Below, in pieces: positions 27,043 to 56,973 of a stretch of 64,000 nt of DNA. A program made the position numbers and the translations under genes. Source of the stretch: Mustelus asterias (Eukaryota); the NCBI RefSeq assembly GCF_964213995.1, contig NC_135830.1, positions 12,276,001-12,340,000 on the forward strand. The letters are read 5' to 3'. Positions within the stretch are counted from its first letter, which is position 1; the number at the start of each line of letters is the position of its first letter. The notes under the pieces are model-generated. The model did not search any database, was not told the origin of the DNA, and saw only the letters and a program-made list of their open reading frames with translations.

Positions 27043-28415
27043 ATGAGGCTCTTTTTTTGTCATCTGGTTATATTGTGGCTGGTGTTCGGTATGGAAAACG
27101 ATAACTTTCTTTTTGCTGGCAGTATTGTGATGTTAATGGACTCTCCACTCAGTGTTGATTAAACCTTTCCATATATTTTATTCCAGGGCTGATTCAAGCA
27201 GATTCTGTGTCGCAACCCCAGATTGAACTGTATATTAATGAAGGCGATAGAGTGAAAATGGACTGCAGCTACAGGACAACTTACAGCGATCCTGGTCTTT
27301 ACTGGTATGGACAGCATACGGGCCAAGCTCCGCATTTTATTTTATTTTTTTCGGCCCAACTTGTCCACGTCGCCCTTTTTTGAAACCCCGAAGCTCATGC
27401 CAATTGCCCGTATTTGGCCCATATCCCTCAATACCCATTTTACTCATGTAAGTGTCTAAATGCTTTTTAAAAGACCAAATTATACCCACTCCACCACTAT
27501 CTCTGGCAGCTTGTTCCAGACACTCATCACCCTCTGTGTGAAACAATTGCCCCGCTGAACACTTTTGTATCTCTCCCCTCTCACCTTAGAACTCTGCCCT
27601 CTAGGTCTCGACTCACTTATCTTTGGGAAAATATATTGAATATATTGCTGATCTGTGCCGCTCATTATTTTATAGACCTCTGTAAGATCATCCCTCAGCC
27701 TTCTACGCTCCAGAGAAAAAAGTCCCAGTCTATCCAGCCTCTCCTTATAACTCAAACGATCAAATCCCGGTAGCATCCTAGTAAATCTTTTCTGCACTCT
27801 TTCTAGTTTAATAATATCCTTTCTATAATAGGGTGACCAGAACTGTACACAGTATTCCAAGGGTGGCCTTACCAATGTCTTGTACAACTTCAAGAAGACA
27901 TCCCAACTGCTGTATTAAATGTTCTGACCAATCAAACCAAGCATGCTGAATGTCATCTTCACCACTCTGCCCGCCTGTGACTCCACTTTCAAGGAACAAT
28001 GAACTTGCACCCCTAGATCTCTTTGGTCTGTAACTCTCCCCAACGCCCGACCATTAACTGATTAAGTCCTGCACTGGTTCAATCTATCAAAATGCATCAC
28101 CTCGCATTTACCTAAATTAAACTCCATCTGCCATTCGTCAGCTCACTGGCCCAATTGCTCAAGTTCCCTTTGCAATCGGAGGTAACTTTCTTTACTTTCC
28201 ACTGTGCCACCAATCGTGTTGTCATCTGCAAACTTACTAACCATGCCTCCTATATTCTCATCCATTTTGTATCAAGATAGAAGCAACAGAAGAGACGCAG
28301 CTTTTGCAAAGGGAAAATTGGAGGCCGGCCAGAGGAATGCAGAAAATAACTTTCCTTTAACGATTACTCGAGCAGAAATCCAAGACACCGCTGTCTATTT
28401 CTGCGTGTTGGGAGA
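27043..28415 (+). pseudogene. TCR V-alpha/delta gene disrupted by a CR1 insertion in FR2/CDR2
   Basis: Leader 27043-27088 MRLFFCHLVILWLVF-G|GT. V exon from 27187 reads GLIQADSVSQPQIELYINEGDRVKMDCSYRTTYSDPGLYWYGQHTGQAPHFI, then the LINE, then from 28264 ILYQDRSNRRDAAFAKGKLEAGQRNAENNFPLTITRAEIQDTAVYFCVLG. Confidence 0.93.
27344..28263 (-). mobile_element. 5'-truncated CR1 LINE inside a V exon
   Basis: RT C-terminal ORF 27480-27893, flanked by ATTTT (27339-43 and 28264-68) as a probable TSD. Confidence 0.9.
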
Positions 28416-28454
28416 CACAGAGGTTTAAAACTCATCTGTCGCTGGACAAAAACC
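28416..28454 (+). promoter_or_regulatory. 23-RSS
   Basis: CACAGAG + 23 nt + ACAAAAACC. Confidence 0.9.
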
Positions 28455-29101
28455 TCACCAAACAGAATTGGCACAGGCGATGTCTCTAGTTCAGTCTCTA
28501 TCCACGACTCCGTGTTCACTGTTACTTTTCTCAATTCTATCGCCTGTACTTCAGAAAGCTGTGGTTCAAGTCTCCCTCCGAAGACCTGAGCGCACATTTC
28601 AGCTGCCACTTACACTGCCAGTGCTAATGGAGACCTAGTGTCTCCGCAGTGAATTGCTCAGATAAACTACGAAATAAAGGCTCCGACTGGCCTTTCTGGA
28701 GGATCTTAAACACTTCACCGCACTATCCTCTAAAGCAGGGCAATTCTCCAAGACATTTAAATCTCAGTCGACATCACTGCAACAGACGATCACGTTACGT
28801 GTGATCTTGCTCTGTTCATAGTGAGGTTTCCTACATTACAATAGTGACTTCACTACAGATTTGTCTCATTTTTATTGGGGGCAGGCTGGATGGGCTCGGC
28901 CGTCCTTCTCTGCCTGTCATTGTTGGCAGCAATAGTAAATATTACAACTCGTAGGCCTGTGCACATCTTTTTTCAGTTTCCCACTCAACACTCGCCCAAA
29001 CAATGCCAATTGCCTGACTTTGTCTTAGGTCCGGCCCTGGAGTGCGGAGTTATCAAATAACCTAACTGGGGTTTCTGTATCAATCCAAGGACAGCACCTG
29101 A

Positions 29102-34157: not shown

Positions 34158-34622
34158 TCAATCAAAGAAACAAAGATACATAGAAACAAGTCGGCCATTC
34201 GGCCCTCGGAACCCGATCCGAAATTCATTGTTATCAAGACTGATCACCAAATTCAATTTTCTGATTCCGCTTCCGCCCCCCCCCCCCCCCCCGCCCATAT
34301 CCCTTGATCCCTTTCGCCCCAATAATTATACCTAATTTCTTCTTGAAATCACACAACATTTGCGTCCAGAGCCCTGACTTTCTCACGGCCTTTCGCTTAT
34401 TTTTATTTCTGTCGCTCTCTATCCTTTTATTTACGTTTCCATGACTTTCTTCCTCCCTATTTTGTTCAATAACTCAGTCATGAAATATCGCTCTTTTACA
34501 TCGATAAACGCTTTATTTCTGATTAAAATCGCACAGCTGTGAACAGTCGGTGGCGTTGTCTACTGTCGCCAGAGGTGAAGATTTAGAATTCAGACACACA
34601 AGTGATGTGAAATTCCAGTGAT

Positions 34623-34661
34623 AGTTTCTGTACGGGGCCTGTATCAGTTTGTATCACGGTG
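34623..34661 (-). promoter_or_regulatory. 23-RSS
   Basis: Minus strand CACCGTG + 23 nt + ACAGAAACT. Confidence 0.9.
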
Positions 34662-36264
34662 AATGTTCAGCGCACAATAATACATGCCACTGTCACTCAG
34701 CTGTGCATCTGTCAGAGTTAAACTGTAGAAACGATTCGATGCTTGTAGTGTTGAAGATAATCGGCCTCCCACACGCCCAGCTTTCTCTGTTTCTCCTTCC
34801 GAATTCCTTCTGGTTAAAAAAAACAGCTCCTCCCCCGGTTTTTGTCGGTACCAGAGCAGGTCATAGCGGCGGCTGTCTGTGGAAAACGAACAGGGCAACA
34901 CCATGCGTTCTTCCTCCAAACATGATACCGATGATGCAAGCTGTTTAACAGCATCAGAATAACACAGTCCTTCAAATACACAATCAACAAAAAATAAATA
35001 GGTGTTTTGATATGGGGCACCATTAAAAAATCTTTCATCTCCTCATCATAATAGGCGGTGGCCCTTTGCTATTATCGCGAGACAATTAATGGAGAAATTC
35101 AGCCAGGAATCCCACCGCGGCAGGATTTGAATACAGTAAAAAAAATCTGGAATTAACAATCTACAATTAAACTATTGTCGATTGTCATATGAACCCATCT
35201 GGTTCACAAATGTTCTTTAGGGAAGGATATCTGCCGTTCTGAAATGGTCTGGCCTATATGTGACTCCAGACAATTGTGGTTGTCTCCCTGCTGCCCTCGG
35301 GCAACGAAGGATGAGCAGGAAGTGCTGGCCAGCCAGCGACGCCCAGTCGCTTCAGGAAAAGAATAAGAATGGAAGCCACGAATGAATGAAAGAAATGAGT
35401 GATTCAGCAAACACATATATCACGTATTGACAGATGACAGATTTATCATTTCCCCCAACCGCTACTCTTTCTGCATAACCTGGAAAATATTTTCCTTCAA
35501 ATATTCATCCTGTTTCCTCTAAGCAGTTACCATGAAATCTGCTTGGACCAACATTTCAAGAAGAAAATTCTTCCTTTGATTGATTTTCCCATTATCTTCA
35601 AACAACCTTCCCTGGTTACCCAGCTTTCTGTCTCTTGAAACAATTTACTCTGTCAAACAGTTCAGGAATATCAACATCGCTTTCAGGTCTCCTGTTACCT
35701 GCCTGTGTTCTGAGAAAGGGGTTCCCGTTACCCAGTGTGCCCTGAAACCTAAGGGCCCTGAACACAGAGACCGTTCCAATAAATTTCCCCCTTACCCTGC
35801 CCAAGACATTGCCGCCGTTCATTAGATTTGATTCCCATAACCGAACACAATACATTAAAAAAGGCCTGAGTATGGATACAGAAATATTTGACTTAATATC
35901 ACTTTACATGTACACTATTCCTATTAATAGAGGTAAGAGTTGGAAATGTTTCCACAAACTTTCAAATTTGCTCTGACGCTTTCATAGCTTTGAATATATA
36001 CAATCCAATGTTTCGCTCTCTTCTCTGCCCCCTTTCAGCTACAACAAACTATTGTAAATCGGAATAATCAAAGTGAATGTTCAAGAAAAAACATACATCC
36101 GTCCATCCTCTGTTATTCCCTTAATCGCCCCCAGCCTCACGTCTTTTTCTACATCCAACCATCCCTCGATATTATTTTTGCAAACCTGCGTTCCAATGCT
36201 AGTTAAATGACTCACCGAGCTTCAGGAAAAGAATAAGAATGGAAGCCGTGAAATCCTGTGACAT
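34662..36264 (-). CDS. Intact TCR V-alpha/delta gene segment (leader 36216-36264, V exon 34662-34969)
   Basis: Leader MSQDFTASILILFLKL-G|GTGAGT. Acceptor TTGAAG, then GLCYSDAVKQLASSVSCLEEERMVLPCSFSTDSRRYDLLWYRQKPGEELFFLTRRNSEGETEKAGRVGGRLSSTLQASNRFYSLTLTDAQLSDSGMYYCALNI. Cys-Trp-Cys are present and the RSS follows. Confidence 0.9.
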
Positions 36265-38440: not shown

Positions 38441-38793
38441 AATCTGGTTTATCTGTGTCACAGAATCCATCTCTCCAAACCTCTACTGCTAAAGACACCA
38501 TTACTTTAAACTTTGAATATCCGGGATTTTGACAACACGCACTCCACTGGTACCGTCACTCCCCAAGACAGACCCCAAAATACCTGCTTAAGAGACACAC
38601 ATCAGGCGAGGCGAGCAAAGAAAACGCTACGGGGGGGGGGGGGGGGGAGAATTTCTGCTTCTGTCGATCCCCTTGAAAAAATCAGCCGGTTAACGATCTC
38701 CAAACTGCAACTGAGTGACTCCGCTGTGTATTACTGTGCACTGAGTGGGCGCACAGCAGTGATGCAGAACACGGTGAGAGCTGTACAGAAACC
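38441..38793 (+). pseudogene. NAR-TCR supporting V-delta pseudogene (inverted copy)
   Basis: Acceptor TTCTGCAG, then SGLSVSQNPSLQTSTAKDTITLNFEYPGF*QHALHWYRHSPRQTPKYLLKRHTSGE. FR1 Cys>Phe, CDR1 Cys>TGA (38530-32), a G17 run frameshift, then RISASVDPLEKISRLTISKLQLSDSAVYYCALS. RSS has a damaged heptamer AGCAGTG + 23 nt + ACAGAAACC. No leader found. Confidence 0.85.
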
Positions 38794-38839
38794 TGAACAT
38801 GGTGAGAAGTACAAGAATCTGTAACCCTAACCATGTTCA

Positions 38840-39000
38840 GGTTTTTGTACAGCTCTCTCCGTGTTCTGTATCACCGTGTCTGTAATTCTCACCATGTTCA
38901 GGTTTTTGAACAAATCTCTCCGTGTTCTGCATCACCGTGACTGTAATTCTCACCATGTTCAGGTTTTTGAACAAATCTCTCCGTGTTCTGTATCAGTGTG
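38840..39000 (-). repeat. Three tandem 61-bp units, each a complete 23-RSS
   Basis: Minus-strand heptamers CACACTG (38994-39000), CACGGTG (38933-39) and CACGGTG (38872-78), each with a 23-nt spacer and nonamers TCAAAAACC, TCAAAAACC and ACAAAAACC. Confidence 0.92.
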
Positions 39001-39306
39001 CTGTGCGCTCACTCAGTTCACAGTAATACACAGCGGAGTCGCTCAATTGTAGTTTGAAGATCTCTAACCGGTTGCTTTTGACTGACGAATGGGTAGAAAC
39101 AGAAATTCCGTCCCCGGCAACCTGGTTCTTATTATCCTCTCCTGAAGTGTGTGTCTGAAGGAGGTATTTCGGAGCCTGTCCTGGGGATTGACGGTACCAG
39201 TGTACTGTATATTGACAGTTCCCTGAATATTCACAGCTTAAAGTAACCGTGTCACCTGCGGCAGACGTTTGGAGAAGTGAACTCGGTGACACAGTTGAGC
39301 TGGAAT
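39001..39306 (-). CDS. Leaderless NAR-TCR supporting TCR V-delta segment, open frame
   Basis: Acceptor CCTGCAG, then SSSTVSPSSLLQTSAAGDTVTLSCEYSGNCQYTVHWYRQSPGQAPKYLLQTHTSGEDNKNQVAGDGISVSTHSSVKSNRLEIFKLQLSDSAVYYCELSERT. The extra CDR1 Cys and lack of a nearby leader are the known hallmarks of supporting V-delta. Confidence 0.88.
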
Positions 39307-46146: not shown

Positions 46147-46199
46147 GGGCTGTGACAGTCACTACCGCCTCAGACCCATCTGAAAATCTCCATTCACCC
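46147..46199 (-). other. NAR-TCR J segment (degenerate G-x-G-T motif)
   Basis: Minus strand reads GEWRFSDGSEAVVTVTA + C|GTAAGT (phase-1 donor, matching the acceptor at 39306). It resembles the IgNAR-type J motif (D/Y)GxGTVVTV and is preceded by an RSS. Confidence 0.8.
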
Positions 46200-46238
46200 C
46201 ACAGTGACAGAGCTCCCAGTCTGCCCAGCACAGGAATG
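46200..46238 (-). promoter_or_regulatory. 23-RSS 5' of J
   Basis: Reading away from J (plus strand): CACAGTG + 23 nt + ACAGGAATG. Confidence 0.75.
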
Positions 46239-46404: not shown

Positions 46405-49191
46405 ACTTGGTTGAAAGAGGGACAGGAGTGGCAGCTGAATATTCCGGGGGACAAGTGTTTTAGGCGAGACAGGGGACGGGCCAAAAGAGGTGGGGGAGTA
46501 GCAGTATTAGTTCGAGGGCATATTACAGCGGTGGAGGGAGGGCAATTCAGAGGGGTCGTGTAATGAGTCACTGTGGGTGGAGCTCAGAAACAGGAAGGGC
46601 GCAGTCACTATGTTGGGGGTATACTACAGGCCCCCGAACAGCCCAAGGGAAGTGGAAGAACGGATATGTCAGGAGATAATGGATAGGTGCAGGAAAAATA
46701 GGGTTGTTGTAGTGGGAGACTTCAATTTCCCTGGTATAGACTGGAATTCGCGTCGGGCTGGGACTCTCAATGGGGAGGAATTTGTAAAATGCGTACAGGA
46801 GGGTTCTTTGGAACAATATGTAGATAGCCCGACTAGAGAGGGGGCTATACTGGACCTAATACTGGGGAATAAGCCCGGTCAGGTCTTCAAAGTTTCGGTA
46901 GGGAAACATGTGGCAAACAGTGACCACAATTCTGTGAGCTTTAGGATAGTGATGGAAAAGGATGAGTGGTGTCCCAAGGGTAAGGTGTTGGATTGGGGGA
47001 AGGCTAACTTTAGTGGGATTAGACAGAAACTGGCAGCTGTTGATTGGGAGAGCCTGTTTGAGGGTAAATCCACATCTGGCATGTGGGAGTCTTTTAAGGA
47101 ACAGTTGTTAGGGCTGCAGGATAGGCATGTGTCTGTAAAAAAGAAGGATAGGAAGGGTAAGATTCGAGAACCGTGGATAACCAGGGAAATTGAGGGACTG
47201 GTCAAAAAGAAAAGAGAGCCGTATGTTAGGTCCAGGCAGCTAAAAACGGAAGGAGCTCTGGAGGAATACAAAGAAAGTAGGAAAGAACTCAAACGAGGAA
47301 TTAGAAGGGCAAAAATGGGTCACGAAATGTCCTTGGCAGACAGGACTAAAGAGAATCCCAAGGCATTTTATACATACGTTAGGAACAAAAGGGTTGTCAG
47401 GGATAAAAATCGGACCTCTCAGGGACAAAAGTGCGGAATTAGAGCCCAAAGAAGTAGGGGAGATCCTAAATGAATACTTTGCGTCGGTATTCACAAAGGA
47501 GAGGGATGTGTTGACTGGGAGTGTCTCGGAGGGGAGTGCTGACCCGTTAGCGAAAATCTCCATAACAAGGGATGAAGCGTTAGGTTTTGTTAGCGAATAT
47601 AAAGACTGACAAATCCCCAGGGCCTGATGGAATCTATCCAAGGCTGCTCAGGGAGACGAGAGATGGAATCGCTGGGCCTCTGACGCAAATCTTTGTCTCG
47701 TCACTGGACACAGGTGAGGTCCCAGAGGATTGGAGGATAGCTAATGTGGTCCCGTTATTTAAGAAGGGTAGGAAGGATAACCCGGGTAATTATAGGCCGG
47801 TGAGCTTGACGTCCGTGGTGGGGAAGTTGTTGGAGAAGATTCTTAGAGATAGGATGTATGCGCATTTAGAAATAAATAAACTCATTAACGATAGTCAGCA
47901 TGGTTTTGTGAGAGGGAGGTCATGCCTCACTAACCTGGTGGAGGTTTTTGAAGAAGTGACCAGAATGGTTGACGAGGGAAGGGCCGTGGATGTCGTCTAT
48001 ATGGACTTTAGTAAAGCGTTTGACAAAGTCCCTCATGGTAGGCTGGTGAAAAAGGTTGGATGTCATGGGATGAAGGGGGAGGTGGCTGAATGCGTGGAGA
48101 ACTAGCTTGGTCACAGAAGACAGAGGGTGGTAGTGGAAGGGTCTTTTTCCGGCTGGATGCCTGTGACTAGTGGTGTTCCGCAGGGCTCCGTGTTGAGACC
48201 TCTGCTGTTTGTGATCTATATAAACGATCTGGAAGAAGGTGTAACTGGGGTGATCAGTAAGTTTGTGGACGACACGAAAATGGCTGGACTTGCAGATAGT
48301 GAGGAACATTGTCAGAGGCTACAGAAGGATCGAGATAGGCTGGAAATCTGAGCAAAGAAATGGCAGATGGAGTTCAATCCAGATTAATGCGAAGTGATGC
48401 ATTTTGCCGAACTAACGTAGGGGGGAGCTATACGATAAATGGCAGAACCATAAAGGGTGTAGATACGCAGAGGGACCTGGGTGTGCAAGTCCACAGATCC
48501 TTGAAGGTGACGTCACAGGTGGAGAAGGTAGTGAATAAGGCATATGGCATGCTTGCCTTTAAAGGACGGGGCATAGAGTATAAAAGTTGGGGTCTGATGT
48601 TGCAGTTGTACAGAACGTTGGTTCGGCCGTATTTGGAATACTGCGTCCAGTTCTGGTCGCCACACTACCAGAAGGACGTGGAGGCTTTTGAGAGAGTGCA
48701 GAGGTGGTTTACCAGGATGTTGCCTGGTATGGAAGGGCTTAGTTATGAGGAGCGATTGGGTAAACTGGGGTTGTTCTCACTGGAAAGACGGAGGATGAGG
48801 GGTGACCTAATAGAGGTGTATAAAATTATGAAACGAATAGATAGGGTGAACGGTGGGAAGCTCTTTCCCAGGTCGGTGGTGACGTTCAGGAGGGGTCATA
48901 GGTTCACGGTGAGGGGGGGGGGGGGGGGTGGGGGGGGGGGGTGCGGGGGATGGGAGGTTTAACACGGATATCAGAAGGACGTATTTTACACAGAGGGTGG
49001 TGGGGGCCTGGAATGCGCTGTCGGGCAAGTTGGTGGAGGCGGACACACTGGGAACGTTTAAGACTTATCTAGATAGCCACATGAACGGAGTGGGAATGGA
49101 GGGATACAAAAGAATGGTGTAGTTTGGACCATGGAGCGGCGCGGGCTTGGAGGGCCGAAGGGCCTGTTCCTGTGCTGTATTGTTCTTTGTT
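46405..49191 (+). mobile_element. 5'-truncated CR1 LINE inserted between the NAR-TCR V and J
   Basis: Frameshifted EN/RT ORFs 46577-48962; TSD GGAACAGAG (46396-46404 and 49192-49200). Confidence 0.93.
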
Positions 49192-49367: not shown

Positions 49368-49395
49368 GCTATTTGTTCTCCTCTCTTCCACTGCG
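49368..49395 (-). promoter_or_regulatory. 12-RSS after the NAR-TCR V (heptamer mutated)
   Basis: Minus strand CGCAGTG + GAAGAGAGGAGA (12 nt) + ACAAATAGC. Confidence 0.65.
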
Positions 49396-49860
49396 GTATC
49401 CCATGTGTGTAGTTCCAGTTCTGAGCTTTGCAGTGTCTTCAACTCTCAAATCCCGATTTTCAAGTGAAAATGTCTTTTCTGCTTTGTTCACCGAGACAAC
49501 AAATCTCCCTCCGCTGGAGATCCGCTCCCTGGTTGTCCCGGTCGGGGTTTTTCTAAAGAAATGGCCATTTTCGAAATCATAAACTCCAGAGAAAACACAG
49601 ATGATGGTGGGAGACTGACACTCCTTCCTGATCACCGCTGCCGGGCTCTGTGTCACTGACTGACTGAAACATCCTGGAAATTAAACACAGAGAGTTTATT
49701 GGACCACCAGAGCCGAACCATACAACGGCGTTAAAATCCTAGGCAGTGCCTGCAATAGGGATGGACTGGGGCAGCACTTTATTCAATCCACAGGATGTGG
49801 GTTAATGTGATCGATACTCACGGGTAAACAGATACACAGGGTGAAAACAAGGATTCCCAT
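49396..49860 (-). pseudogene. NAR-TCR V (IgNAR-like V domain) pseudogene; leader 49822-49860, V exon 49396-49673
   Basis: GCFSQSVTQSPAAVIRKECQSPTIICVFSGVYDFENGHFFRKTPTGTTRERISSGGRFVVSVNKAEKTFSLENRDLRVEDT shows the VNAR-type FR2/CDR2 deletion (ERIS.GGRF), an extra FR1 Cys, and Phe for the core Trp. A frameshifting deletion precedes TGC-AAA-GCT. The leader MGILVFTLCICLP is 39 nt (phase 0) against a phase-1 acceptor. Confidence 0.88.
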
Positions 49861-50495: not shown

Positions 50496-50944
50496 ATGCA
50501 GATATTCAGAATCTGTATTATGTTTGGGATAATTATTGTCGGTAAGGATGATTCCAATCATGTTCCATTCAGATTGGCGTTATATTTTATATTAACACGC
50601 GATTTTTTCTTGCTCCCAAACACATGACAGATCAGAGTGATGGAGATTCAGTTACTCAGTCCCAGTCTTCAGAGAGCGGGAGAGAAGGGGAAACCGTGAC
50701 TATAAAATGTACCTATCACACTACAGAAGAAATGTATTATGTCTATTGGTACCTGCAGCTACCAGCGAAGGAGCCCGAGTTTGTTGTGTGGAGACGGTCT
50801 TGGGATGTTGTGGAATGGAAAGGCTCGGCGTTTGGAAACCGTTTTGCTTCAGACCTCCAGCTGTCAGACTCCACCGCAAGTTTAACCATCATGGACTTGC
50901 AGACGACCAACGCTGCCATTTATTACTGCGCTCTCTCTGAGACT
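50496..50944 (+). CDS. Intact TCR V-alpha/delta gene segment (leader 50496-50541, V exon 50631-50944)
   Basis: Leader MQIFRICIMFGIIIV-|GTAAGG, 89-nt intron, then DQSDGDSVTQSQSSESGREGETVTIKCTYHTTEEMYYVYWYLQLPAKEPEFVVWRRSWDVVEWKGSAFGNRFASDLQLSDSTASLTIMDLQTTNAAIYYCALSET. Confidence 0.95.
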
Positions 50945-50983
50945 CACAGTGATTGAAAAGAGTACCGACCCTGTACAAAAACT
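50945..50983 (+). promoter_or_regulatory. 23-RSS
   Basis: CACAGTG + 23 nt + ACAAAAACT. Confidence 0.95.
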
Positions 50984-51397
50984 GTCTTCCGATTGAAACT
51001 GCTGTTCCTGCCTGCTGAGGTTGTCGAGAATCTGGGACAAGTGCAATCACAATGAGGCTGCCAACCCTTCAAACACACACACAGAGGAATCCAATTAACC
51101 TCTGTCAACTGCTGCACTCGTAATCAGTAAACTAGAAGCTGCCTCAGCTTTTATTAATCTCGTCCCTGTATTAGTAATAACTTTATTAGACTTTTCCTCA
51201 GTTTACATTAATCTAGACCCGGCATCAGTAATAACTGTACTAGACCATTTCAGTGTATATTAATCTCGATCCCGTATCAGTAAAATGTTGTGTTTAATTG
51301 TTTGACTTTTGTGTTCTGCTTGAATCATAAATTGTTTCCATTCTTTGGTCAGGAGCATTTCTAACGAATTAATCTGTTTTTATTAATCTCGTCCCTG

Positions 51398-52300: not shown

Positions 52301-54344
52301 TTGAAATTTAGCCATCAGCTTATTTTGTCTATTTCTCAAAGGTTAACTTCATTCTGTCCCATCGAGATGTTTTGACCATGCAGATGTGAAAACCTGTTCT
52401 CAGCAACTGTAAATGTTGACAGTTCACCTTAGGCACTAATTGCGGTGTGTCAATCATGATTATTAAATGCCCACTGACTGCACACAACATCCAGTGCAAT
52501 GAGAGAATTTTAGATTGAATATGAGGGGGTAAGCGTTGCTGCTGTTGGCGCGAAACTGTCAGTGAGAGTTGATTTAATCGCACCATATTTCTAAATGCTG
52601 CATTCAGACGATAGCAAAATAAACCCAGAAACTTATGTCTGTACATTAGGAGACTGAACGTTCAGAGTGTTCTCTTTGTAATTGTCTCCTGTGATTTAGG
52701 CGTGCCTGGTAGTTTCCTTTCTCGGCCATTACAGGGGGCAATCACATTGCTGTGGGTCTTGAGTCACAGATAGGCCAGACCAGGTAAAGATGCCAGATTT
52801 CGTTCCCTAAAAGACTTCAATGAAGGAGATGAGGTTTTCTTTGCGACAACCAACGAACACCATTATTAAGACTAGCCTGTTGTCAATTACATCATGTTTC
52901 TATTAATTCGTTGAATTGATTATGCTTCACCGGCTGCCATGGTGAGAACTGAACCTCTGCCCTGACATCATCAGGGTCTTTGAATTTCGGAACTAATGGC
53001 ATTGCTGCTGCATCACCATGTTGCATAACTGCTAAATTAAAATGGAAATTGTTTTTTTGCATCTCCGTGAACCTGACCACAGCTTCAGCGTCGAACGCTG
53101 GTTGAAAAAATCTGAAAGTTATTGAAAAAAAGGCAGATCAGGCAAGTAATCCGAAGACCGTTTTGTCACGTACATCATTGTTGATCTGTCGGTGTCGGTC
53201 ACTTTCAGGGGCTTACTGTTTTACATTGCATTTCATTGCTTTATGATATACTGTAACATTTCCATGATTTCTGTTCTCCATATTTTTCTCAGCTCTCACC
53301 ACTTTACAACACTTCCTCTCTAACTCCCACACGAGGGGCACAACAACAGCTGAAAATCTTGAGGTTATTGCTGCCGTCTTCCTGATTTCTTAGCAAGTAT
53401 TTGTCAGAAACCACTGCTCATGTTTGCAAACCGCAAACACTCGGTTCAACTCATATATTTCATCGTTTATTTTTCAAATTGGAATAACTGACATCCTGTG
53501 GTTTTCGCTTTCCTTCGCTCAAAGAATAGCAACGAGGTCATAAAAAACCCTCTTATGTAGAATGTGGATGAGGAGAGACTGAGGATAGAGCTTGAGCAGG
53601 TTAATAAGCCAAATGGCCTTAAAAGTAAAGGAAAGCGGTTTGGAGTCCAGTCAAATTTTGCACGCGAGGAACTGGGGAGCCTTTTAGGGAACTGAGCTCA
53701 AGTGCTGTTATTGGGTTGGAACAGAAACCCCAGTTTGGTTATTTAAAACCCCAGGGCCCCAGGGCCAGGCCGAAGGTCGAGCCAGGCAATTGGCATTACT
53801 TGCGGCGAGAGAGAAACTGAAAAATATGTCTGCAGGCCCGCATAGTGCAATGCTGAATTTACTATTTCTGCCAACAATGATAGACGGAGAAGGGATTTCG
53901 AGTCCATACAGCCTGTCCCACAATGCAAATGGAGTAAATGTGAAGTGCAGTCACTATTGCAATGCAGGAAAGAGTCGCTATGCCCACAACAAGATCCCCG
54001 GTGATGTGACCATCTTTTGCAGCTTGTCGAGTGAGATTTAAATCTCTTTGATAACTGCCCTGCTTTAGAAACTAGTGAGGTGAGCTGTTTAAGAACCTCC
54101 AGAAAGGCCAGGCGGAGCCTCCATTTAGTAGCGTTTCTGAGCAATTCAGTGCGGAGACGATCCGACTCCATTTGCACTGGCAGTGTAAGTACCAGGTGGA
54201 ATATGGTCTCAAGTCTCTGGAGGGAGATGTGAATCCATAACTTTCTGAATTACAGGCGATAGAATTGAGAAATGTAACAGTTACCTCGAAGCCGCGTATG
54301 GAACGTGAACTGGAGACATCAACTGTGTCATTTTTATACGGTGA

Positions 54345-54655
54345 GGTCTTTGTGCAACGACAAATGAATTCTAAACTTCTGTGTCTCTGAACAAGCAGAA
54401 ATAGACTGCGATGTCTTGGATTTATGCTCGAGTAATCGTTAAAGGAAAGTTATTTCCTGAATTCATCTGACCAGCCTCGTAATGTCCCTTGGCAAAATCT
54501 GCGTCTCTTCTGTCGCTTCTATCTCGATACAAAATAAAATATGGAGCCCGTTCCGTGTGCTATCAGTACCAGTAGAGATCGGGATTATAGGATCTTGTTG
54601 TGTAGCTGCAATCCATTTTCACACTATCGCCTTCAGTAATATATAGTGCAGTCTG
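54345..54655 (-). pseudogene. TCR V pseudogene, paralog of the 27043 V; leader and intron deleted; 23-RSS at 54345-54383
   Basis: LYITEGDSVKMDCSYTTRSYNPDLYWY**HTERAPYFILYRDRSDRRDADFAKGHYEAGQMNSGNNFPLTITRA*IQDIAVYFCLF, then CACAGAA + 23 nt + ACAAAGACC. Confidence 0.92.
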
Positions 54656-54834
54656 AGCCAGTAATCTCTTTGAATCAGATGTGTAGAAATACAGATATAT
54701 TTACTATTGAAATATTTTAACTTAAGTGACTGATGCACAGAAAGTTAAAACAGAAGGCGAGGAAGGATCTTATGATTTTCTTCCCAGTACAAAGTAGCTG
54801 TGCAAAAACTGGGAAGCATCATGTTACCCGAGTA

Positions 54835-56011
54835 CTTCAAAACATTGCCTGAAAGACTGATGGAAAGCGTATGCATTGATAAATGACTGGGTGCATGTGG
54901 AAAAAATACAGAAGTGCAGGACGAAGGATATGTAGCTGGTCTGAAGGAATAGCTCTTGCAGACGAGTAGTACGAAGAACGTGGCCGAATGCCTTCCTTCT
55001 GTGTCGTTTTATCCAGTGATTCAATAAATCATATCCAATCCTAACTCCGGCATAAACAATCGTTCCTGTTGTTGTCTCTCGTTCAAAATCCTAAAACTGC
55101 CTCCAGAATAGCACCGCGGAAGCACCTGCACCATTCACACTAACGTGGATCAGGATGAGACCACAATGTGTTTATGTGAAGTTGGCGATGGACAATAAAT
55201 GGTGGTCTTGCTATAATCGCCGATAACTAGAGAACAGATGCAACAAATCAAAAACATATGGCACCTTATAAGAATCAGCTGGTTTCTCTACCTGCACCAC
55301 CTGACTGCGTCACTGCTCTGGGCGGGGCTGGTGTTTGGCATTTCACCCCACCCCCTCCCTCCATACACCGCTTAATCATGAAATATAACATTCGGGCATG
55401 TAATTTGTCATTGAGCTTCTTTCAAGGTGCCGAAAAAGGAAAATGGCGAATGAGAGAATCTGGGAGAGTAAAAGCGGGCCTGAAATAGAGGAAAAATGCG
55501 AGAGCAAACAAGACACAAATAAAAAAAGGAAAGGATGAATGATGCAAACCGAGGAAGAAATTATGTGCTGATTCTTATAAGGTGCCATATGTTTTTGATT
55601 TGTTGCATCTGTTCTCTAGTTATCGGCGATTATAGCAAGACCACCATTTATTGTCCATCGCCAACTTCACATAAACACATTGTGGTCTCATCCTGATCCA
55701 CGTTAGTGTGAATGGTGCAGGTGCTTCCACGGTGCTATTCTGGAGGCAGTTTTAGGATTTTGAACGAGAGACAACAACAGGAACGATTGTTTATGCCGGA
55801 GTTAGGATTGGATATGATTTATTGAATCACTGGATAAAACGACACAGAAGGAAGGCATTCGGCCACGTTCTTCGTACCACTCGTCTGCAAGAGCTATTCC
55901 TTCAGACCAGCTACATATCCTTCGTCCTGTACTTCTGTATTTTTTCCACATGCACCCAGTCATTTATCAATGCATACGCTTTCCATCAGTCTTTCAGGCA
56001 ATGTTTTGAAG
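54835..56011. repeat. 445-bp near-perfect inverted repeat (arms 54835-55279 and 55567-56011; 287-bp spacer)
   Basis: The arms are reverse complements; I could see about three mismatches. Confidence 0.93.
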
Positions 56012-56373
56012 ATCATAACGACACGCTTTGATATATCATACATTTCTCCAGCATTTCTATTTATCGATCATCTTAAATCAGTATCATCTCATTGTCGTCC
56101 CTGTTTCCCATGAAAATAATTTTTACTCATTTGACTCTTTCACAAATTTGGATACCTGATTTAAATTTCAGCTAAAGTTTCTTTTTTTGTCAAGGGAACC
56201 AATTCCGTTTCTCTACTCACTCCGAGTAACTGATGTCTATAATCCTTGACGGCATTTTGCCAGAACAAAAGTATGTTTTTGAATCACTATATGAACGAGG
56301 GATGCTTTTTTTCAAGAGTCGCTGGATTGAAGATGCCTTTGCGAACCTCCCCGGCTTCGTAGTGGTTTGACAA

Positions 56374-56411
56374 GGGTTTTGTACGGGTCACACCCGGTTT
56401 GAGGCACCGTG
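56374..56411 (-). promoter_or_regulatory. RSS (22-nt spacer)
   Basis: Minus strand CACGGTG + 22 nt + ACAAAACCC. Confidence 0.85.
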
Positions 56412-56973
56412 ATCCTCAATCCACTGAAATAGAGGGCACTGTCTTTTGTCTCCACTGCAGAAATTGACAAAGGGAAAATCTTATATAGACTGAAATGCCA
56501 AGCATCGAATTTTCCTTCGGCACACTCGGCTTCCTTGCGTGTGGTGTTATCCCAGTGCAATAATGGCTGGAGTGGCTGGTTCGGGTAAAGCCGGTACCAG
56601 TAGCGATCCAGATCAACAGAAATGGAGTTGTAATTACGGCTCAATTCCAGGTTAGTTCCTTCGGCTACCTTCAACTGACGTTGAATCTGTGTTACCGAAC
56701 TCCCTTGGAATATACCTGCAATATGCAAATAGTATGCAAAACATTCAGGTAACCCCCTGATTGATGACAAGCATCCCCCTCTCCCCTCTTTCAAAATGAG
56801 GAAAATCAATCACAATCTAACTATCACATTTGGATTATTTACACCAGAGGAAAGAATACATTTCAGTATTTAGATAATATAGGGGGAAGAATGACAAGTC
56901 ATATTAAGAAGTGTTTCACATGTTCCAATTTACCGAATAGAAATGAGATCACGAGAAGCTTAACTGGTGGCAT
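56412..56973 (-). CDS. TCR V segment, open frame but lacking both canonical cysteines (leader 56934-56973, V exon 56412-56715)
   Basis: Leader MPPVKLLVISFLF-G|GTAAAT, then GIFQGSSVTQIQRQLKVAEGTNLELSRNYNSISVDLDRYWYRLYPNQPLQPLLHWDNTTRKEAECAEGKFDAWHFSLYKIFPLSISAVETKDSALYFSGLR, with CGT and AGT at the two Cys positions. Confidence 0.85.

Follow-up and report, generated by a model that had tools for sequence, protein, structure and literature searches.

On balance, we favour the view that the stacked 23-RSSs found in the window, the whole 64,000-nt stretch of Mustelus asterias DNA analysed here, belong to an old RSS minisatellite behind the supporting V segments of the NAR-TCR, in which the first unit is the one used and the further copies are probably carried along as passengers. 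The anatomy of the array, its spread through the family, its absence from other V families, its turnover, the joins at the proximal unit, the stop in unit 1 and the dead cassette of the window were established directly; the minisatellite origin and the neutrality of the distal units are what we infer. In the ancestor of the supporting Vs, duplication of an RSS together with its 22-nt flank would have founded the repeat. RAG would then cut at unit 1, and the distal units would cost little, since they are lost whenever unit 1 is used in a normal deletional join. Slippage or unequal exchange, perhaps between cassettes as well, could keep the units RSS-like without selection on each copy. The textbook layout is one RSS per gene segment; with two to nine stacked RSSs, this V family offers a naturally occurring test of how RAG selects one signal from several adjacent ones. 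Inherited joins give a first small readout of that choice, which was unit 1 every time.

The RSS array and its cassette in the window

Tandem Repeats Finder reported a repeat at 38818-38995 (period 61, 2.9 copies, 92% matches, 0% indels, score 300), and a degenerate heptamer-23-nonamer pattern matched exactly three places in the window, all on the minus strand (38962-39000, 38901-38939 and 38840-38878), compared to none in 100 shuffles. The 61-bp unit repeated three times with heptamer, 23-nt spacer and nonamer, as described in the first-pass annotation, was thus confirmed, and the nonamer of the most distal copy was indeed the consensus ACAAAAACC. Each 61-nt unit consists of a 23-RSS and a 22-nt tail, and the spacers are 23 nt long in all three RSSs. 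The RSSs start at 39000, 38939 and 38878; the positions 39001, 38940 and 38879 that were named earlier are the last bases ahead of each heptamer. The distal units satisfy the RSS layout as well, with a CAC heptamer, a 23-nt spacer and an A-rich nonamer. A search with the exact-consensus RSS pattern gave no match in the window because the heptamer is non-consensus in all three units. Each unit has the full 7-23-9 layout of the canonical V 23-RSS in the available part of PMC2193808, which also treats CAC as the critical part of the heptamer. The V frame ends in ...YYCELSERTAH*, where the TGA is made of heptamer bases 6-7 and the first base of the spacer.

Table 1. Positions of the array, the V segments and the NAR-TCR elements (window coordinates unless a locus is named)
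Feature	Coordinates	Strand	Basis
Unit 1 (proximal): heptamer CACACTG 39000-38994, nonamer TCAAAAACC 38970-38962, 22-nt tail	38940..39000	-	pattern match
Unit 2: heptamer CACGGTG, 23-nt spacer, nonamer TCAAAAACC, tail	38879..38939	-	pattern match
Unit 3 (distal): heptamer CACGGTG, 23-nt spacer, consensus nonamer ACAAAAACC, tail	38818..38878	-	Tandem Repeats Finder and pattern match
Supporting V-delta exon with splice acceptor and open frame, encoding a V-set domain that has an extra CDR1 cysteine	39001..39306	-	sequence and domain search
Facing V from the supporting V family; broken, with a stop/frameshift and a poly-G run	38441..38815	+	sequence
NAR-TCR J segment with its 23-RSS; limits approximate	46150..46238	-	sequence
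Multi-copy repeat insertion (2.8 kb) between NAR D and J	46405..49191	.	window copies elsewhere, 93-96%
NAR V with leader, pre-joined to D; limits approximate	49368..49860	-	sequence
RAG-type inversion in the NAR-TCR cassette of L036, 5.8 kb	L036:2148-7930 (C122)		

The units of the window differ from one another at several positions. Units 1 and 2 have derived bases in common, among them the non-consensus nonamer, which has itself been duplicated. A second genomic locus (L002, 99.7% identical) carries an identical set of three units, and a 98%-identical paralogue (L003) has two units compared to the three of the window, the second being a hybrid of units 2 and 3. The hybrid unit and the nonamer shared by units 1 and 2 are as slippage would give. 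Unit 2 is likely a recent slippage copy, judging from the derived bases it shares with unit 1 and from the presence of only two units in L003.

The region is highly duplicated, and the array might have arisen as an assembly artefact or as a duplication private to the window copy; this is very improbable. An artefact is unlikely because the three units recur in L002 and because positions 38900-38990, across the junction of units 1 and 2, agree without a single difference with a 91-nt contig (X4) of another sample. The mutual differences between the units also speak against it, and independent short-read contigs bridge unit junctions. The first-pass annotation had considered that the array could be private to this copy, but it is present in 52 of the 59 unjoined family members, in other samples and under other species labels, and for the family this reading is, by the sequences compared, already refuted.

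NAR-TCR supporting V-delta segments of cartilaginous fish were reportedly described by Criscitiello et al. in 2006. In the available parts of four papers on such segments (PMC1845163, PMC12227049, PMC5931798 and PMC3457774) they are leaderless, carry a CDR1 cysteine, lie downstream of the NAR V-D-J and join a TCR-type 12/23 D, as is the case here; the lack of a leader exon and the extra CDR1 cysteine are given as marks of the NAR-TCR-associated V-delta in the accessible text of PMC1845163. For the window V, a leader scan covering the 900 nt upstream found no leader exon. It did pick up leaders for three other Vs in the window and a weak candidate in 7 of the 36 open family members. The extra CDR1 cysteine (CEYSGNCQYTVHW) is present in all open family members, and the NAR V-D-J is positioned upstream on the same (minus) strand. 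Together, these features support the earlier assignment of the window V as a NAR-TCR supporting V-delta. A PDB search returned generic antibody V matches only. The facing V on the plus strand carries one unit of its own, a fourth and damaged one with a heptamer short by 2 nt, whose tail adjoins the tail of unit 3. Facing V pairs are common in the supporting-V family, and in L080/L081 two whole cassettes converge.

In the NAR V of the window, the a-b loop cysteine is present and the canonical Trp absent, as in the available accounts of the known system. The frame of this V is shifted by a 13-nt deletion ahead of the second cysteine, the heptamer of its 12-RSS is altered to CGCAGTG, and its J motif is worn (DGSEAVVTVT compared to DGSGTVVTVT in intact cassettes). 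With the insertion between D and J, which we take to be a LINE, these lesions mark the NAR-TCR cassette as dead. The intact NAR V, RSSs and J of a functional cassette are missing in the window copy and present in L067/L068, L077, L078 and L080. The array in the window would serve no purpose, since there is no functional NAR V-D-J to which its leaderless V could be spliced. The window copy is a relic, and its value is limited to pointing at the family because its cassette is dead. We also observed that the NAR V is pre-joined to D, with the 12-RSS directly after V, in the window (49395), L032, L034, L043, L077 and L080, and that NAR V and D are separate in L067, L078 and L079; the spacer of the unjoined NAR Vs is 22 nt. 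The Vs at 28416 and 54383 were considered as NAR Vs and rejected, as the intact cassettes place the NAR V in another family, at ~49700. Pfam gave no match for a 79-aa piece of the NAR V.

Five other V segments in the window have single RSSs (27219-28459, 34621-34990, 50641-50990, 54340-54720 and 56371-56800). The first is split by a repeat insertion and the fourth contains stops, and the V at 56411 has a 22-nt RSS spacer. A near-perfect inverted repeat at 54835-56011, with arms of 445 nt at 99% that are 287 nt apart, lies between two V segments.

Spread of the array through the supporting V family

Genome searches and fetched stretches gave a census, probably including haplotype duplicates, of 65 V ends at 46 loci, which fell into 15 subfamilies at 93% identity. 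Six V ends were joined and 59 were unjoined. The 52 unjoined members with an array carry two to nine units. The remaining seven have a single unit and are all broken Vs, three of them truncated at the facing array and four split by a 2.4-kb insertion; the latter (L032, L037, L040 and L042) have the insertion after unit 1, leaving four orphan units. All 34 open unjoined Vs, a class that includes dead cassettes such as that of the window, keep at least two units (2-6). Unit number ranges from two to six within subfamilies and differs between close paralogues, so that these are head-to-tail units with a copy number that varies among close copies, as in a variable-number minisatellite.

The comparison with other supporting V-deltas that the first-pass annotation had proposed thus gave a copy number varying from one to nine among the 59 unjoined members. 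Its null explanation, a neutral slippage duplication, held in so far as slippage fits the turnover in copy number, but not as a duplication of this copy: the array is old and family-wide. In organism E, which carries another species label, at least one contig runs across three units with a 63-nt period, and in organism B, under yet another label, tail-to-heptamer junctions were found among the matches listed. Contigs from organism D were not counted, having fewer than 31 letters on one side of the unit junctions.

The fetched DNA contained 31 distinct other V ends, namely the 6 joined family members and 25 of other families. A canonical V has one 23-RSS, as did all 25 of the other-family V ends, none of which was followed by a downstream RSS copy. 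Unit 1 of the family resembles the canonical 23-RSS in being a shown RAG substrate, with coding joints and one signal joint, whereas the distal units have no coding segment and are placed behind an in-frame stop. Genome-wide, a strict tandem-RSS pattern gave 26 matches, all in the supporting-V unit, compared to none in the control; a looser pattern gave 62, of which 35 were in the supporting-V unit and 27 in one unrelated satellite.

This satellite (G000:C6:115021974-115042145, L092-L094, minus strand) spans 20 kb with a 37-nt unit and contains 303 RSS-like matches. These combine a consensus heptamer, 23 intervening nucleotides and an 8/9 nonamer, and each runs over into the following unit. 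The 59 kb that were read contained no V, J or WYRQ motif, which indicates that the amplification of RSS-like repeats does not require an immune gene; an open frame of 1534 codons lies ~12-16 kb away on the plus strand. The satellite could be a RAG sink or a fragile site, or it could have arisen by chance. RSS-like sites in a tandem repeat are also found in the cryptic RSSs of the mouse gamma-satellite, which in the available part of PMC2193808 are weak chance sites; the present array, in contrast, contains a true V-segment RSS and begins at the coding end.

The kind of gene and its single 23-RSS were already known, and the stacking is new as far as we have searched. The available parts of the papers on the supporting V-delta mention no repeated RSS, whereas here it forms a minisatellite of two to nine copies, and the cassette of the window is a pseudogene. 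The literature searched held no description of stacked RSSs, although the figures or supplements of Criscitiello 2006, Ott 2021 and Deiss 2019 may show them.

Signals cut in the joins of the assembly

Joins of supporting Vs that are already present in the assembly preserve a trace of the RSS at which RAG cut. The six joined family members represent four independent junctions (L033/L035/L039, L038, L041 and L036). L033, L035 and L039 have one common V-D junction, and this join was likely inherited because the junction is shared despite a divergence of 1.4-2.9% over kilobases. L038, with a broken V, and L041 hold two further V-D junctions. In all five of these members a V shortened by 1-3 nt is joined to a TCR-type D, and the array is gone. 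The D-J step is still open in each of them (L033 on C96, L035 on C119, L039 on C436, L038 on C401 and L041 on C850). Inherited RAG-type joins are also found in germline-joined shark Ig genes (Lee et al. 2000, PMC2193156) and in the germline-joined supporting V of marsupial TCR-mu (PMC3457774), according to the available parts of both papers; the joins seen here differ in being V-D joins of a TCR-delta-type cassette with an open D-J. None of the joined members belongs to the subfamily of the window copy, and family members were joined to 12/23 D segments that were followed by J segments.

The fourth junction was of another type. L036 is the counterpart of the unrearranged L067/L068 (99.0-99.5% identical) with an inversion (Table 1). 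The coding joint, which links the V end with the 3′ end of the NAR D, is retained, and the signal joint is perfect, with the 12-RSS of the NAR D placed heptamer-to-heptamer with unit 1 and all four units kept. Thus, the RSS of a supporting V can mis-pair with the NAR D, which is a cost of the layout or of the position of the V. No other such signal joint was found genome-wide, and no contig bridging that of L036 was present among the matches listed.

All four independent junctions, a small sample, were at the first heptamer and none was distal. The 59 unjoined arrays showed no distal join, a D or J followed none of them, and no unit preceded any of the 19 D segments. Equal use of the intact units would give four proximal joins at p ~0.02, if each was a single event. 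In the three deletional joins, the proximal join could have been preceded by a distal one, so that only L036 (1 of 4) shows the first cut directly.

The first-pass annotation had suggested that the distal RSSs act as decoys or permit serial rearrangement. RAG would then cut distal heptamers and make non-productive joins, which would lower the usage of the V or leave unit 1 for a rescue join. Most distal units do have a CAC heptamer and the exact 23-nt spacer (83 of 139 were intact by the rule given below), the heptamer CACACTG recombined in a plasmid assay in the available part of PMC2193808, a deletional distal join would spare unit 1, and serial joining would end in a state resembling the three deletional joins that we saw. 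The absence of distal joins or intermediates from the 59 arrays and the 19 D segments, the bias in the four joins and the sole signal joint, at unit 1 with every unit retained, nevertheless make distal cutting improbable, and in this small sample the suggestion was not borne out. The same annotation had argued that only the proximal RSS can give a productive join, and this was upheld for all open Vs of the family. A distal join cannot be productive because unit 1 contains an in-frame stop, a TGA, in 34 of 34 open Vs, and the same stop excluded a role of the array in lengthening CDR3. More than one RSS close to a segment and the possibility of secondary rearrangement are also features of VH replacement via embedded cryptic RSSs and of human DIR elements with several RSSs. 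Here, in contrast, no secondary or distal join was found, and the extra RSSs are full copies downstream rather than embedded heptamers.

Other D segments and RSSs were noted in the same stretches. One 12/23 D segment occurs in 19 copies (L047-L065) on 16 contigs, including three places on C71, and those that were read are followed by J segments, which suggests several TCR-delta-type D-J clusters in the assembled sequence rather than one, with possible haplotype redundancy. In L057 (C71:11023790), a V of the family of the window's 34661 V is joined to this 12/23 D, and in L050 (C138) two D segments are joined to each other 465 nt downstream of a VH-like V, which carries a 23-RSS of its own. A lone upstream-facing 12-RSS that is not followed by any evident D or J was seen at L069:8520 and ~1.1 kb upstream of the D in L047, L056, L059 and L061-L063; it may represent a decayed D or serve as a target of non-productive joins.

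Constraint on proximal and distal units

RSSs were scored as intact when they had CAC, at most one heptamer mismatch, at most two nonamer mismatches and nonamer A5-7. By this rule, unit 1 was intact behind 34 of 34 open Vs compared to 11 of 25 broken Vs, and when only distinct sequences were counted, 11 of 11 compared to 6 of 12 (p=0.014). The distal RSSs were intact in 52 of 82 cases behind open Vs and in 31 of 57 behind broken Vs. Counted as distinct sequences these were 23 of 41 (56%) and 12 of 31 (39%) (p=0.16), a trend that points towards some constraint. No intact distal RSS at all was present behind 5 of the 34 open Vs. In the internal distal units, the heptamer and nonamer changed no less than the spacer and tail (p=0.84; open Vs only, p=0.45), in a test of low power that found no difference in the proximal units either. 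The nonamer was the most variable class in the distal units.

Rates of change were then compared on a tree of seven open subfamilies with four-fold V sites as the neutral control (23 steps at 23 sites, 1.00 per site). In unit 1 there were 0.29 steps per site in the heptamer, 0.35 in the spacer, 0.44 in the nonamer and 0.27 in the tail. Both the spacer (8 steps at 23 sites, p=0.005) and the tail, which is not part of the RSS (6 steps at 22 sites, p=0.002), had changed less than the four-fold sites. The tail of unit 1 is, on this tree, more conserved than neutral drift predicts, which could reflect either selection on this tail or sequence exchange among arrays. In unit 2 the values were 0.43 for the heptamer, 0.70 for the spacer and 0.89 for the nonamer, none of them significant; the nonamer (8 steps at 9 sites, p=0.48) evolved at the neutral rate, and the identity of the heptamer between subfamilies was 0.88 compared to 0.745 at four-fold sites. 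The tail of unit 2 was left out, its rate being biased low by three of the seven taxa that have no internal tail. Within the limited power of these tests, the distal heptamers and nonamers showed no purifying selection, and the distal units do not clearly appear to be kept as RSSs. Two further candidates were dropped. The upstream intron as a neutral control had an identity of 0.63 compared to a shuffled baseline of 0.58, and the positions of a putative YY1-like site in the tail were among the more variable in the distal units.

The first-pass annotation had also proposed that the distal RSSs increase RAG loading on the V. A selected platform of this kind, in which the repeats serve as binding sites for RAG, or through the conserved tail for another factor, and thereby raise the cutting of unit 1 of a leaderless and promoter-less V, is possible but doubtful. 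The supporting V must rearrange for every NAR-TCR chain, the array is confined to the supporting V family and recurs under other species labels, none of the 34 open Vs has collapsed to one unit, the tail and spacer of unit 1 are conserved beyond the four-fold sites, and joins at unit 1 are what a platform allows. The nonamer is the main binding element for RAG1, and it was in the distal nonamers that variation was greatest, with that of unit 2 at the neutral rate; the five open Vs without an intact distal RSS also count against the proposal. Lineages with a lone unit, 0 of 7 among open Vs compared to 2 of 8 among broken Vs, were too few to show selection, and exchange between arrays could also slow the apparent change of the tail. 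Of the loading proposal, there remains the observation that no open V has fewer than two units, and no RSS-specific constraint on distal heptamers and nonamers was seen. A broader version, in which RSS copy number controls V(D)J recombination and is kept across sharks, we regard as equally tentative. If the stack does boost rearrangement, it would explain how the leaderless V that every NAR-TCR chain needs is picked. If it is a passenger, as our preferred reading has it, the stack nonetheless marks supporting Vs and can mislead annotation.
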